This document shows, one piece after another, positions 1 to 35,427 of a DNA stretch of 64,000 nt. The position numbers and the translations under genes are program-made. The notes under the pieces are model-generated. The model was not told where the DNA came from. It did not search any database and saw nothing but the letters and a program-made list of their open reading frames with translations. Where the stretch lies: positions 1 through 64,000 of the forward strand of contig CAXHJY010001625.1 in NCBI GenBank assembly GCA_964016885.1, read 5' to 3'. Position 1 is the stretch's first letter, and each line of letters begins with the position of its first letter. This stretch comes from Eledone cirrhosa (Eukaryota).

Positions 1-3000
1 TGTTGAGAAAGGTGGGTAGATAGAGAGACAGTGTTGAGAAAGGTGGGTAGATAGAGAGACAGTGTTGAGAAAGGTGGGTAGATAGAGAGACAGTGTTGAG
101 AAAGGTGGGTAGATAGAGAGATAGTGTTGAGAAAGGTGGGTAGATAGAGAGACAGTGTTGAGAAAGGTGGGTAGATAGAGAGATAGTGTTGAGAAAGGTG
201 GGTAGATAGAGATAGTGTTGAGATAGGTGGGTAGATAGAGAGATAGTGTTGAGATAGGTGGGTAGATAGAGAGATAGTGTTGAGAAAGGTGGGTAGATAG
301 AGAGATAGTGTTGAGAAAGGTGGGTAGATAGAGAGATAGTGTTGAGAAAGGTGGGTAGATAGAGAGATAGTGTTGAGAAAGGTGGGTAGATAGAGAGACA
401 GTGTTGAGAAAGGTGGGTAGATAGAGAGATAGTGTTGAGAAAGGTGGGTAGATAGAGAGATAGTGTTGAGATAGGTGGGTAGATAGAGAGATAGTGTTGA
501 GAAAGGTGGGTAGATAGAGAGATAGTGTGGAGAAAGGTGGGTAGATAGAGATAGTGTTGAGATAGGTGGGTAGATAGAGAGATAGTGGGTAGATAGAGAG
601 ATAGTGTTGAGATAGGTGGGTAGATAGAGAGATAGTGTTGAGAAAGGTGGGTAGATAGAGAGATAGTGTTGAGAAAGGTGGGTAGATAGAGAGATAGTGT
701 TGAGAAAGGTGGGTAGATAGAGAGACAGGTGGGTAGATAGAGAGATAGGTGGGTAGATAGAGAGATAGTGTTGAGATAGGTGGGTAGATAGAGAGATAGT
801 GTTGAGATAGGTGGGTAGATAGAGAGATAGTGTTGAGAAAGGTGGGTAGATAGATAGATAGTGTTGAGATAGGTGGGTAGATAGAGAGGTAGTGTTGAGA
901 AAGGTGGGTAGATAGAGAGATAGTGTTGAGAAAGGTGGGTAGATAGAGAGATAGTGTTGAGATAGGTGGGTAGATAGAGAGATAGTGTTGAGAAAGGTGG
1001 GTAGATAGAGAGATAGTGTTGAGAAAGGTGGGTAGATAGAGAGATAGTGTTGAGATAGGTGGGTAGATAGAGAGATAGTGTTGAGATAGGTGGGTAGATA
1101 GAGATATAGTGTTGAGATAGGTGGGTAGATAGAGAGATAGTGTTGAGATAGGTGGGTAGATAGAGAGATAGTGTTGAGATAGGTGGGTAGATAGAGATAT
1201 AGTGTTGAGATAGGTGGGTAGATAGAGAGATAGTGTTGAGAAAGGTGGGTAGATAGAGAGATAGTGTGGAGAAAGGTGGGTAGATAGAGATAGTGTTGAG
1301 ATAGGTGGGTAGATAGAGAGATAGGTGAGGGTAGATAGAGAGATAGTGTTGAGATAGGTGGGTAGATAGAGAGATAGTGTTGAGATAGGTGGGTAGATAG
1401 AGATATAGTGTTGAGATAGGTGGGTAGATAGAGAGATAGTGTTGAGATAGGTGGGTAGATAGAGAGATAGTGTTGAGATAGGTGGGTAGATAGAGATATA
1501 GTGTTGAGATAGGTGGGTAGATAGAGAGATAGTGTTGAGAAAGGTGGGTAGATAGAGAGATAGTGTTGAGAAAGGTGGGTAGATAGAGAGACAGTGTTGA
1601 GAAAGGTGGGTAGATAGAGAGACAGTGTTGAGAAAGGTGGGTAGATAGAGAGATAGTGTTGAGAAAGGTGGGTAGATAGAGAGACAGTGTTGAGAAAGGT
1701 GGGTAGATAGAGAGATAGTGTTGAGATAGGTGGGTAGATAGAGAGATAGTGTTGAGAAAGGTGGTTAGATAGAGAGATAGTGTTGAGATAGGTGGGTAGA
1801 TAGAGAGATAGTGTTGAGATAGGTGGGTAGATAGAGAGATAGTGTTGAGAAATGTGGGTAGATAGAGAGATAGTGTTGAGAAAGGTGGGTAGATAGAGTG
1901 ATAGTGTTGAGATAGGTGGGTAGATAGAGAGATAGTGTTGAGAAGGTGGGTAGATAGAGAGATGTGTTGAGAAAGGTGGGTAGATAAAGAGATAGTGTTG
2001 AGAAAGGTGGGTAGATAGAGAGATAGTGTTGAGAAAGGTGGGTAGATAGAGAGATAGTGTTGAGATAGGTGGGTAGATAAGAGATAGTGTTGAGATAGGT
2101 GGGTAGATAGAGAGATAGTGTTGAGATAGGTGGGTAGATAGAGAGATAGTGTTGAGATAGGTGGGTAGATAGAGAGATAGTGTTGAGATAGGTGGGTAGA
2201 TAGAGAGATAGTGTTGAGAAAGGTGGGTAGATAGAGAGATAGTGTTGAGATAGGTGGGTAGATAGAGAGATAGTGTTGAGATAGGTGGGTAGATAGAGAG
2301 ATAGGTGGGTAGATAGAGAGATAGTGTTGAGATAGGTGGGTAGATAGAGAGATAGTGTTGAGAAAGGTGGGTAGATAGAGAGATAGTGTTGAGAAAGGTG
2401 GGTAGATAGAGAGATAGTGTTGAGAAAGGTGGGTAGATAGAGAGACAGTGTTGAGAAAGGTGGGTAGATAGAGAGATAGTGTTGAGAAAGGTGGGTAGAT
2501 AGAGAGACAGTGTTGAGAAAGGTGGGTAGATAGAGAGATAGTGTTGAGATAGGTGGGTAGATAGAGAGATAGTGTTGAGAAAGGTGGGTAGATAGAGAGA
2601 TAGTGTTGAGATAGGTGGGTAGATAGAGAGATAGTGTTGAGATAGGTGGGTAGATAGAGAGATAGTGTTGAGAAAGGTGGGTAGATAGAGAGATAGTGTT
2701 GAGAAAGGTGGGTAGATAGAGAGATAGTGTGGAGAAAGGTGGGTAGATAGAGATAGTGTTGAGAAAGGTGGGTAGATAGAGAAGAGGTGGTAGATAGAGA
2801 GATAGGTGGGTAGATAGAGAGATAGTGTTGAGATAGGTGGGTAGATAGAGAGATAGTGTTGAGATAGGTGGGTAGATAGAGAGATAGTGTTGAGAAAGGT
2901 GGGTAGATAGATAGATAGTGTTGAGATAGGTGGGTAGATAGAGAGGTAGTGTTGAGAAAGGTGGGTAGATAGAGAGATAGTGTTGAGAAAGGTGGGTAGA

Positions 3001-26309: not shown

Positions 26310-27148
26310 TCATCATCATCGTCGTTTAATGTCCATTTTCCACGCTAGCATGGGTCTGGACGGGAATTGTCCCACTTGAGGCAAGATTGGTTGTCTTGCT
26401 CAGGACTGTCTGGCGGGTTTTCTACGGCTGGATGCCCTTCCTAACACAAACCACGTTTACAGTGGTGGGGTAGGGTTAGTGGGACGGGTGTGTATTTTGG
26501 TTAGGAGGTGCCTACTTAAGCAAGGCGGGTCTTCTGTATTACTACGTAGCGCCAAAGATCTCAGTTCAGTGACATTGTCTTGGAGAGGTGTAAGTGTGTG
26601 AGGTCGGATTTTATCAAGTCGTCCCAGGTTTTTCTGGGTCTGCCTACTCCGTAGCTACTGTCTATTTTGATCGCCCTGCACTTTTTTATACAGCTGTCAT
26701 CTTTCATGCACATCACGTGACCATACCAACATAGTCTTCTCTCGAGTAAACAGCATCTGATCCCTCTTATTCCTAATTTCTCACTTAGTTCATTTATGCT
26801 TTGCCGTTCGCGTATATTACTATTACACATCCAACGGGGCATGCAAGCTTCGTTCCTCTCCAGTCTGCGTAGATCCTCTGCACACAAGGCCCATGTCTCA
26901 CTGCCATGTAACATCGCTGTTTGTATGCAGGTATCATACAGCCTGCCTTTTATTTTTAGAGAGAAACCTTTAGTGGCCAATAGTGGTATAAGCTCTCTGA
27001 ACTTTGTCCATCCCGTTCGGACTCTAGCTACAGTAATTTCGGAGCACCCGCCACTGCTGATTTTGTCATCCAGGTAACGGAAGGTGTCCACTATTTCTAT
27101 AGAACCATCTGGGCAATGGAATGAGCTAGTATTGTGTGGGCATTTGCA
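26310..27148 (-). mobile_element. RTE LINE 3' fragment (RT C-terminus, 3' UTR and (TGA)n tail)
   Basis: ORF 26561-27199 closely matches ORF 29858-30580 (FRYL.DKISS..ARVR.GW.KFREL..HGSETW..WYGHVM..GRPRKTW). Confidence 0.92.
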
Positions 27149-27851: not shown

Positions 27852-30580
27852 TATAAGCTTTTCTGGGTGGGAAATGACAATGGGCTGGGTGGGGTAGGAA
27901 TCATGGTAGCAGAAAAGTGGGCAGATAAGATAATAGACGTAAATAGAGTGAACGACAGAATAATTAAAATAAGACTTGTCCTCAATAAAACTACGGTGAC
28001 AGTAATATCTGCGTACGCACCCCAATCCGGACTGCCCGGCGCTATAAAAGACAGATTCTATGAGACACTGATGCTCGCTACCTCCTGTGACGCAAATAAC
28101 CTAACCATCTGTAACACTAACTTCAAAAAACGAGACAATCACCTGATCACCTATAGATCGGGGGAACACACAAGCCAGGTAGATTATATCCTTACCAGAA
28201 GACGTGACAGAGTGTCTGTTGTTAACACTAAATCCCTCCCCCATGAAGAATGCACCTCCCAACATAGACTGATAATTAGCGACCTCATAGTCAGGACGAG
28301 ACGTACTAGACAGCGGAAGAGGACTATCCTCAGGAGAAAAATATGGAAGCTAAAGGACCCCATAGCCAGAAATAAATTTCAAAGCATATTACTTGATGTA
28401 AGGAAGAGCAATTAGAGTGGTATAATATAGAGGAACAGTGGGAATTCCTGAAAGCAAACCTGCTGACGGCGGCAGACGAAGTCTGTGGCTGGAGCAGGCC
28501 TGTAGGTAGGAGGAGAGTAACATGGTGGTGGAACAGTAAGGTGGAGGAGTCAATTAAGGCCAAAAAGCAGGCTTGGAAAGTATGGCGGGATGGGGGAAGT
28601 AGAGAAGACTATCAAGTGGCCAGGAGGGAAGCTAGGAGACAAGTGTACTTCGCAAGAAGGGAAGCAGAGGAAAGAAAGTTCAAGCATGTTATACAACGTG
28701 AGGACCAAAAACGTGAGGTGTTCAGGATTGCTAGGCAATGTGTCAAGGAAAACCGTGATATTGTCGGGGAGAAGTGTGTACTTAATGATGATGGCATACT
28801 TGCCATCACTGACACTGATAAGAAGGTAGCTTGGAAGTGTCACTACGAAAGGCTTCTAAATGAGAACAAATGGGAGAAAGACAGTCTCCTCCACATCGAC
28901 CCAATAGAGGGACCAGCAGTGTTAGTCGAAGGTAGTATAATAAGTAAGGTAATCAAAGATATGAAGACGGGTAAGGCAGCTGGGCCTTCGGAAATAGTTG
29001 CTGAGATGCTGAAAGCCTCTGGAACGGTGGGACACACCATGGTCACCCGGATAGTAAACCAAGTCATACAGAATGGGGTCGTTCCGAAGGACTGGCATAG
29101 CAGCATCATCATGAACTGTTACAAGGGTAAAAGAGATGCCCTAGATAGGTGTAACTATAGAGGCATTAAATTAATCGACCAGGTCATGAAGGTCACGGAA
29201 AAAGTAATAGCGCAACTAATCAGAGAGAGAATTGATATAGATGAAATGCAGTTCGGGTTTGTGTCAGGAAAAAGTACCACAGACGCTCTTTTCATTGTAC
29301 GACAACTACAGGAGAAGTACCTAGCTAAAAGTAAACCCCTATACTTAGCTTTTGTTGACTTGGAGAAAGCCTTCGACAGAGTCCCCCGTCCCATTATCTG
29401 GTGGGCTCTTAGAAAACTAGGTGTTGATGAATGGCTTGTGAGAGCTATACAAGCCATGTATAAAGAAACAGTCAGCAAGGTTAGAATTAACAACGAATAT
29501 AGTGTAGAGTTTAGCGTAAAAGTTGGTGTCCATCAGGGCTCCGTTCTTAGCCCCCTACTATTTATTATTGCCCTTCAGGCTATAACAGAGGAGTTCAAGA
29601 CTGGCTGCCCATGGGAACTCCTATACGCAGATGATCTAACGCTCATAGCTGAATCAATGACCGAACTAGAGAAGAAATTCCAAACATGGAAGCACGGCCT
29701 AGAATCAAAAGGCCTTAAAATTAACCTGGCTAAGACTAAAGTTCTAGTTTGTAGGAAATAAAATAAGGCGGCGGTCCCTTCCGGGAAATGGCCATGCTCA
29801 GTATGTAGGAAAGGCGTAGGGAGAAACTCCATTTTATGTCCCAAATGCAAAGTATGGGTGCATAAAAGATGTAGTGGGATCACAGGTAAGCTAACTAAGA
29901 ACATAGATTTTACATGTGGCCGGTGCTCTGGTGCAATAAGTAGCAGCAAGTGCCCACAAAATACTAGCTCTTTCAATTGCGCAGAGGGTTCTATAGAAAT
30001 AGTGGACAGCTTCCGTTACCTGGGTGACAAAATCAGCAGTGGGGGAGGGTGCTCTGAAAGTACAGTAGCTAGAGTCAGAATTGGATGGAAAAAGTTCAGA
30101 GAGCTTATACCACTATTAGCCGCTAGAGGGTTCTTCCTAAAAATGAAAGGCAGGTTATATGATGCCTGCATACGAACAGCAGTGCTGCATGGCAGTGAGA
30201 CCTGGGCATTGTGTGCAGAGGATATACGCAGACTAGAGAGGAACGAAGCTTGCATGCTCCGCTGGATGTGCAATAGTAATATACGTGAACGGCTAAGCAT
30301 AAACGAACTAAGGAAAAAATTAGAAATAAGAGGGATCAGATGTTGTTTACTCGAGAGAAGGCTACGTTGGTACGGTCACGTGATGCGCATGAAGGACGAT
30401 AGCTGTATAACAAAGTGCAGGGCAATAAAGATAGACGGTAGCCACGGAGTAGGCAGACCCAGAAAAACCTGGGACGACATGATAAATTCCGACCTCACAT
30501 GCTTACACCTCTCCAAGACAATGTCACTGGACCGAGACCTTTGGCGGTACTCAGTAATAGAGAAGACCCGCCTTACCTAA
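27852..30580 (+). pseudogene. Disrupted RTE ORF: APE endonuclease, RT, PHD-like finger, C-terminal domain
   Basis: EN motifs GVGIMV, SAYAPQ, QVDYIL, SQHRL. RT motifs NYRGIKL, QFGF, FVDLEKAFD, GVHQGSVLSPLLF, YADD. There is a frameshift near 28400, an in-frame TAA at 29759-29761, and the GDFN region of the EN is missing. Confidence 0.93.
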
Positions 30581-31078
30581 ATACAAAGTAAAAACCTACT
30601 ACAGTCAGTAGGCATCTCTATCAAAACACCCCCCCGTCCCACCACCTCCACCTCCACCCACACCGCCCCTTTCAATGTAAAGTTATGTTGGTGCCACAAC
30701 ATCCAGGCCGAAACAAATGAGATCGTGTAGGTGTCACGACAAAAAAAACACAGTCCACGCTGTAATGTGGCCGTGTAGGCAACACGGTAAAAACCTCCCA
30801 GCCCCACACTGTAAATGTGGTTGGTGTTAGGAAGGGCATCCAGCTGTAGAAAACCCGCCAGACAGTCCACGCTGTAATGTGGCCGTGTAGGCAACACGGT
30901 AAAAACCTCCCAGCCCCACACTGTAAATGTGGTTGGTGTTAGGAAGGGCATCCAGCTGTAGAAAACCCGCCAGACAGTCCTATGCGAGCAAGACAACCAC
31001 TCTTGCCTCAAGTGGGAAAACCCCCGTCCAAACCCATGCAAGCGTGGAACACGGACGCTAAACCTTGATGATGATGAT
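27852..31078 (+). mobile_element. RTE-clade LINE, 5'-truncated, with 3' UTR and (TGA)n tail
   Basis: APE-endonuclease and RT reading frames run in order, followed by a 3' UTR ending GGACGCTAAACCTTGATGATGATGAT. Confidence 0.95.
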
Positions 31079-32425: not shown

Positions 32426-32670
32426 GAGGTGCCACAGCAAAAAAGCACCCAGCCCACACTGTAAAGTGGACGTGTAGGCACCATGAAAAAAAGCACCCAG
32501 CACTCACTGTAAATGAGGTTGGTGTTAGGAAGGGCATCCAGCTGTAGAAACCAAGCCAAAATAAGTTCCTGTATGAGCAAGGCATGGTCAGCCGACCAGA
32601 CACTGTCAACAGGACAACCCGTCTAACCCATGCTAGCATGGAAGAACGGACGTAAAACGGTGATGATGAT
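32095..32670 (+). mobile_element. Two RTE-tail modules (about 32095-32325 and 32425-32670)
   Basis: GGTGTTAGGAAGGG.ATCCAGC.GTAGAAA ... GC.TGGAAGA..GAC.T.AAACG(ATG)n. Confidence 0.8.
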
Positions 32671-32677
32671 ATATATA

Positions 32678-32884
32678 ATGAAGGAAGTGTGGTAAGGAAC
32701 CAGGTGGACCATAACGCACCAGAGTACTCAATACTTAGGGTGGTAGAGTGAGTATTAGGAAAATGTTCAAAACCCCAACGGCAGAGCTCAAGCCATTTCG
32801 ACGGCTATTTCTGGACTATTTCAGTCCAGAAATAGCCGTCGAAATGGCTTGAGCTCTGCCGTCAGAGTTTTGAACATTTTCCTA
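32678..32884 (-). mobile_element. Short repeat-element end with a 62-bp-arm fold-back palindrome containing half a hammerhead
   Basis: 32678-32760 is the reverse complement of ~35341-35425. 32778-32817 and 32823-32862 are perfect 40-bp inverted arms. Confidence 0.8.
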
Positions 32885-32968
32885 TATGATAAATTAACGG
32901 AGCCATAGACTCTCGCTATTCCCTGTCATTAATGTGCTCAAAGGAGAAGGAATCCCGAGCCCTTTATA

Positions 32969-33198
32969 ATACAATATGTAGAAAAGATAACACACCAGAG
33001 AGAGAGATAGTGCGCCATCAGTCAAACAGGGAAAAACCACCACTGTATGGCATCTATAACCCATGGAAGGGAAAGTAGACACACAATAATTAAAAGTATA
33101 AATCAAAGTGCAAATACGTACCACTGGTAGCTTTTCCCTGTTTGACTGATGGCGCACTATCGCTCTCTCTGGTGAGTTATCTTCTCTACATATTGTAT
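32969..33198. repeat. Inverted repeat with ~73-bp arms and an ~82-nt spacer
   Basis: Perfect 30-bp core 33006-33035 versus 33132-33161, extending outward with few mismatches. Confidence 0.9.
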
Positions 33199-33253
33199 CA
33201 TCATCATCATCATCATTTTACGTCCGCTTTTCCCTGCTTGCAAGGGTGGGACG

Positions 33254-35282: not shown

Positions 35283-35331
<49 letters not shown>

Positions 35332-35427
35332 AAAAAGTACTTTTTCCTATTACCCACTCTACTACCCTAAGTATTGAGTACTCTGGTGCATTATGGTCCA
35401 TCTGGTTCCTTACCACAATTCCTTTGT

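Follow-up and report, generated by a model that had tools for sequence, protein, structure and literature searches.

A Hydra-clade Penelope-like element (PLE) leaves inverted insertions, and hairpins of the type found in the window (the whole 64,000-nt stretch of Eledone cirrhosa DNA analyzed here) are the shortest among them. The copy under study occupies approximately 207 bp within (TA)n and is composed of a 78-bp tail and two 62-bp arms, with the hairpin at its end. With moderate confidence, we interpret it as a minimal inverted insertion into (TA)n, for which two run-off cDNAs, one per target end, were probably joined head to head.

The hairpin itself has the dimensions originally described. 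Its 40 perfect pairs (32778-32817 with 32823-32862) surround a loop of 5 nt (32818-32822), and with three mismatches allowed, each arm measures 62 bp (32756-32817 and 32823-32884). GAAA occupies 32841-44 and the GTC triplet 32861-63, as in the original prediction. The fold reaches -107.1 kcal/mol (z -20.9), and none of 200 shuffles was equally good. The earlier description covered the hairpin only and contained nothing on the very high copy number of its repeat or on the other ribozyme half in the tail-bearing, minus-strand arm; the 78-bp tail at 32678-32755 and the flanking TA are also part of the element. On the left side, a (TA)n target remnant (32670-32677), recognized by its sequence and by other copies that also lie in (TA)n, adjoins the end of a SINE-like repeat. 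The tail comes next, on the minus strand and at just one of the two ends, and is supported by alignment to parent elements and by the tandem junctions L167 and L168. The tail-bearing arm (32756-32817, minus strand) aligns with the hammerhead 3′ half of the parents L278, L120, and L119 and comprises the 3′ strand of stem II, GAAA (32798-32795), stem III with a palindromic loop, and a cleavage triplet that has decayed to GTT (32779-32777), its 5′ end falling exactly at AGTCC. The five bases inserted at the apex (32818-32822) match neither parent upstream sequence and repeat the left-arm bases 32807-32811, which suggests local re-copying. The tailless arm (32823-32884, plus strand) is the second copy of the ribozyme half, starts exactly at AGTCC as well, and ends at TA; directly after the right-hand target remnant (32883-32887), a second, unrelated tail-plus-inverted-arm repeat begins. 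Missing from this copy are the 5′ core of the hammerhead and the 5′ strand of stem I; its arms both start farther downstream, at the AGTCC of loop II. A second copy of the family is located at 35330-35424 (minus strand), where the tail and a 22-bp perfect palindrome of the arm end lie in (TA)n. The Rfam scan of the window gave no hammerhead among 150 of its 201 matches and microRNA models on repeats only, and three contig sets of one sample contained no contig spanning the locus.

A search of the 3.0-Gb genome returned 1,677 candidates, 40 of which were scored. The scored copies share the extent 32669-32887, in which (TA)n lies at either end of a unit made up of the one-sided 78-bp tail and the hairpin; within the family, tail lengths range from 75 to 78 bp. 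A 22-mer of the arm has at least 54,367 exact matches in the genome, and the two-armed hairpin pattern was found at no fewer than 12,478 exact loci, both counts being lower bounds. The majority of copies read GAAAC-GGC-loop-GCC-GTC and are better hammerhead halves than the window copy, which shows CpG decay. At L102-L104, an identical hairpin occurs three times at a spacing of 2,908 bp, a tandem segmental duplication.

The parents of these hairpins are coding elements. On contig C1, 7 of the first 30 arms extend upstream into shared sequence; in this set, two pairs in inverted orientation have a Penelope ORF between their arms. The L120 frame encodes 710 aa with DKT (residue 109), YRDD, a CxCX5C linker, and a GIY-YIG-like motif (AYIGLT); CxxC at 662 and CxH at 690 are placed around the EN, RWR replaces RWK, and the start of the ORF is frameshifted in that copy. 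These motifs match the definition of the Hydra clade (PMC8557442). The element has a single ORF with RT and C-terminal GIY-YIG, the change of DKG to DKT, the CxCX5C, CxxC, and CxH motifs, and insertion into (TA)n, and its 3′ region carries a hammerhead with a U3-A8 or C3/A8 core rather than the canonical one. A Pfam scan and a PDB sequence search of the ORF gave no hits; among its look-alikes in the Atlas (0.97-0.99), HTH_animal occurs in 25-99% of members, and GIY-YIG is present as well. At loci of the window subfamily, most hits contain ORF pieces that are 72-95% identical to L120, with up to 95% over 470 aa. The parent element is approximately 3.6 kb long, and at the tandem loci L167 and L168 (two only), the tail continues into the 5′ UTR and the start codon of the next unit.

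These parents, with a full ribozyme and an ORF, bear out the original assignment of the window hairpin to the 3′ half of a PLE hammerhead in an inverted terminal arrangement, but the detail of the core did not hold. Instead of the expected CTGANGA-GACGGCTA, parents of the window subfamily carry the core TTGANAA (U3-A8), a stem II of 9 bp, and a 31-nt loop. Genomic copies linked to a PLE ORF exist as had been anticipated, but with an upstream core other than CTGANGA. The absence of CTGANGA upstream of the stem, named as grounds for rejecting the assignment, would be a misleading test if taken literally, because the 30 inspected of the 37 CTGANGA matches are apex junctions or foreign partners and include no parent. 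A second CTGANGA-based search yielded 8 matches versus 2 in a reversed control, and all 8, when viewed, comprised no parent and one chimeric arm.

The 5′ core of the ribozyme is YTGANAA, and the parent pattern has 1,864 matches in the genome. Among the first 100 of these, read by eye, position 8 is invariably A, position 7 varies (G 81, T 16, A 3), and position 3 is T in 61, C in 37, and another base in 2; C at position 7 was seen in three rows of a further set of matches. In the 37 parents with C3 opposite A8, the 3-8 pair is expected to be absent. Of the 74 matches in the window subfamily, 67 are parents with the whole hammerhead (by eye). The consensus fold of 18 parents contains stems I, II, and III around an unpaired core. 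Single-sequence folds often depart from this consensus, the ribozyme stems of the 18 parents covary weakly (2 of 15 pairs), and at the Rfam gathering score, no hammerhead was found in six loci. Judging by its stems, GAAA, NUH triplet, and free position 7, the parent motif is a predicted type I hammerhead, which in 37 of 100 parents is without the 3-8 pair. Loop III includes a palindrome of 6-8 nt, which could pair two RNAs and would, in this case, suit a two-template enzyme.

Other repeats and hammerheads were noted along the way. The unrelated repeat that adjoins the element (32888-33201) is of like build, with a tail of approximately 78 bp, a 235-bp arm, and an 80-bp inverted arm; it has 2,533 genome candidates, longer copies run past its junction, and one locus weakly matches the PLE protein. 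From position 1 to approximately 15000, at the contig start, the window consists of some 480 tandem units of 31 bp, whose GC skew is extreme (about 0.98), and a 547-bp inverted repeat (26513-27059 and 30037-30583) is 88% complementary, its copies lying 3 kb apart. Elsewhere in the genome, L017, L023, L028, L035, L037, and L042 harbor no fewer than three additional hammerhead families, which have canonical cores and an A/T-rich stem III and in part form inverted pairs. L023 holds the 3′ part of another PLE (700-1500, minus strand), whose GIY-YIG region is 29% identical to the L120 protein and which includes a minimal CTGAAGA hammerhead; this part is fused head to head with an arm of the hairpin family.

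The arms of the family have two sharp ends. The first is AGTCC in loop II. Beyond the stem, the longer arm of an apex covers 19 nt at most, and its commonest end is at 11-12 nt (53 of 139 apices). A G precedes AGTCC in 29 of 115 hairpin arms versus none of 96 parent arms, in a set of loci that was chosen by patterns and is non-random; 12 of these 29 extra G residues could equally belong to the opposite arm, as its last base. Among 2,019 matches, the first 100 (by eye, ambiguous contexts excluded) have a non-parental C behind the arm end in 74 cases and a non-parental T in 26, as the copying of a cap G would predict. The extra G is likely to be such a copied cap, and AGTCC the capped transcription start. 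This reading of AGTCC draws on the initiator consensus. The sequence restored at +1 by the commonest apex junction (29 of 115), TCAGTC, resembles this consensus, and some of these junctions derive from parents in which TCAGTC is already present. Penelope promoters are placed in the pseudo-LTR by PMC2377424. At the apices of L004, L019, L182, L210, and L237, the last 6-11 template bases recur as one to three re-copied pieces, which resembles a telomerase-style realignment at the template end.

The second end coincides with the predicted ribozyme cut. Small hairpins that close near this position were found at 311 loci. The first 50 of them, classified by eye, divide into 9 that extend past the cut, 13 without an insert, and 28 whose short inserts depart from the parent sequence (1 ambiguous), and the 13 insert-free loci could be deletions at CG microhomology. 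When arm ends followed by an untemplated A or T were counted at the cut, at -1, and at +2 in subfamilies other than that of the window, the tally was 293, 33, and 3, respectively. The cut-site hairpins that were viewed had a tail and TA flanks in 7 of 7 cases, and the spacer is often as short as 0-1 nt. Trimming to a stable clamp explains this end poorly, because G+C-rich pairing runs on past the cut. This second arm end likely marks the predicted ribozyme cut.

In the proposed mechanism, the endonuclease of the element would cut (TA)n, and the RNA would start within the upstream pseudo-LTR, at the AGTCC of its loop II, and would therefore have only the 3′ half of the ribozyme at its 5′ end. 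Each target 3′ end would prime at one of two internal RT start sites flanking the tail. As these sites lie approximately 62 and 140 nt from the RNA end in the 5′ pseudo-LTR copy, run-off products of approximately 62 and 140 nt would result. Both cDNAs would run off the same fixed RNA 5′ end, and their 3′ ends would be joined head to head via microhomology, untemplated bases, or short re-copied pieces. Priming on the downstream pseudo-LTR copy would lead to the long inverted insertions, and with the 3′ cleavage product of the ribozyme as the template, both arms would stop at the cut and form a smaller hairpin. For Poseidon, cutting and extension of both target strands were observed with purified protein, a predicted dimer, which used two internal start sites on either side of the tail (PMC11167929).

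Arm lengths are symmetric with respect to the tail. In 22 long inverted pairs, the tail arm was longer in 9, the tailless arm in 10, and 3 were unclear; in 41 short hairpins, the respective numbers were 16 and 15, with 9 ties and 1 two-tailed case. The many longer tailless arms contradict a simple self-copying of a tail-primed cDNA, by which the tailless arm would never be the longer one. A single cDNA could also run off, fold back, and be copied to a hairpin-capped duplex, which a nick in either strand at the tail-side TA would unfold (flip/flop). This route would account for the symmetric apex orientation and the one-sided tail, and PMC8557442 attributes the tail to endonuclease resolution. 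It would also account for the subfamily concordance of the arms, as approximately 98.5% of the hairpins tested have both arms from one subfamily (3,749 concordant versus 56 mixed hairpins at two sites). At a further site (AATT/AAAT), which separates a different pair of subfamilies, 30 of 163 candidate mixtures were viewed, and all 30 turned out to be single point changes; the concordance and this absence of mixtures are equally compatible with one template and with two. Rare variants were shared by both arms in 6 cases versus 0.74 expected, with 3 of the 6 in one locus and 93 one-arm variants, in a count that leaves out L001-L020 and 26 of 142 hairpins (gapped or divergent), and this excess leans slightly toward self-copying or later repair of the arms. 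However, flip/flop yields neither mixed subfamilies nor foreign partners. Of 30 mixed hairpins viewed, 15 involve a transversion and 4 have two tails, and arms of the family are also fused to other Penelope families (L023, L021, L035, L042). The mixed and two-tailed hairpins could themselves stem from deletions between neighboring copies, and L185 was discarded as a two-template hairpin, its tail and apex belonging to one subfamily. Further points against flip/flop are the spacers of 0-1 nt at cut-site hairpins, which leave no room for a priming loop, and the long pairs, which would need loops of up to 2.7 kb. In contigs from one study and one sample, moreover, a cut-short tail is directly joined to a full tailless arm in 14 of the 15 joints shown, 10 of them within 32822-32828. 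Overall, we regard flip/flop as unlikely.

The hairpins could also form a non-autonomous family that is copied whole from hairpin masters, with the apex remodeled later by cruciform DNA repair. They outnumber the long copies (12,478 versus 1,864 exact matches), some apices are common to many copies, and palindromes are unstable, all of which would suit such masters. Against them stand the identical subfamily variants of the long copies and the apex boundaries on RNA landmarks, which at the ribozyme cut are defined to a single base despite the G+C-rich pairs beyond; the untemplated A/T and the extra G, too, suit the ends left by a reverse transcriptase, and we judge the existence of such masters to be rather improbable. 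For the palindromes at inverted junctions of head-to-head rotifer Penelope elements, self-priming on an antisense RNA template is proposed in PMC3846280, and antisense RNA could come from the hairpin copies. This proposal appears improbable to a high degree for the present family, since its arm ends match landmarks of the sense RNA (ribozyme cut, extra G) and the longer arm can be either. The original prediction had the cDNA snap back on the ribozyme's own stem II, which the 9-bp stem II of the parent would permit, and one loose contig end (run X3, at 32818) looks like such a loop. As a snap-back predicts that the whole loop II is retained at the apex, it finds no support in the 139 apices, none of which reaches more than 19 nt past the stem or contains the whole loop II, nor in the sequences that match the predicted junction (573), of which the first 100, read by eye, all lack loop II. 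Both window arms stop at AGTCC, and this very improbable route fails for the bulk of the copies. A MITE or another DNA-transposon derivative with a hammerhead likeness by chance would be short, high-copy, TA-flanked, and built of inverted repeats, as these insertions are. Here, the tail lies outside the inverted repeat, which is thus non-terminal, and the long copies continue into the Penelope ORF of a retroelement; these parents refute a MITE, and its probability is negligible.

In L1 twin priming, two primers from two target ends give rise to a joined inversion, and two non-overlapping parts of the RNA are copied. The preferred reading, i.e., two run-off cDNAs joined head to head, shares with L1 the two target-end primers and the joined inversion, whereas one and the same RNA stretch would be copied twice here. 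Poseidon PAc of the green anole (PMC11167929) is comparable in its two RT start sites that define the tail, in the cutting and extension of both strands, and in a tail that is the start of the next unit. It belongs to another clade, and its start sites are non-homologous to the target, whereas both are at TA in the present family. In the Poseidon study, RNA-seq gave no reads at the cut of the ribozyme, and head-to-head joining was left unmodeled (PMC11167929).

Within the Hydra clade, including Hydra-1_Obim of Octopus bimaculoides, PMC8557442 describes the same DKT, RW(K/R), CxCX5C, CxxC, and CxH motifs, the C-terminal GIY-YIG, the (TA)n target, the 3′ hammerhead, and inverted truncated copies with a one-sided tail. 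In comparison, the present element is longer (approximately 3.6 kb versus "generally <3 kb"), as is its tail (75-78 bp versus 30-40 bp), and it differs in the U3-A8 or C3/A8 core, the long stem II and loop, and the dominance of mini-hairpins with fixed ends. It is a different family from Hydra-1_Obim, whose core is listed as CTGAAGAG, the likeness being judged by eye from the supplement of PMC8557442. The Cercyon PLEs of Schistosoma (PMC4209133) likewise have a type I pseudo-LTR hammerhead with U3-A8 covariation, a palindromic loop III, and opposite-strand pairs. Unlike their minimal stem III, the one found here has 5 bp and a 9-nt loop, and the present family adds a genomic footprint at the cut site; for other motifs, only weak in vitro cleavage is reported in the Results and Discussion of PMC4209133. 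Non-LTR retrozymes (PMC7229834; bioRxiv 10.64898/2026.07.22.740005) are non-coding, hammerhead-bearing, and derived from pseudo-LTRs, as the hairpins are. They are head-to-tail tandems with whole ribozymes, whereas half ribozymes stand head to head here, and the hairpins were not assigned to this class.

Earlier publications cover the class and clade of the element, its (TA)n targeting, the U3-A8 core, and inverted copies tailed on one side; the new observation is the pair of fixed-end footprints. Our search of openly accessible papers, outside repeat databases (Repbase/Dfam) and closed journals, retrieved no paper on the family or its end footprints. As a wider and tentative interpretation, which we hold to be possible rather than probable, a two-site enzyme would copy one short RNA from both target ends and join the copies, and tens of thousands of insertions would form a single-base fossil record of the capped start and of the in vivo cut. 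Each hairpin would start at +1 and retains the two RT start sites, so it might be transcribed at half length. This half-length RNA would then perhaps be rebuilt as a palindrome with each insertion, which would make the hairpin a SINE-like parasite with twice as much sequence in its DNA as in its RNA.

The field has yet to settle by what route Penelope elements come to insert head to head and whether their hammerheads are cleaved in vivo. With thousands of independent products whose ends lie on exact RNA landmarks, both questions become testable by counting and simple assays. For the organism, a genome with more than 12,000 near-perfect hairpins of approximately 60 bp may provide substrates for RNA editing or small-RNA production, if these hairpins are transcribed.
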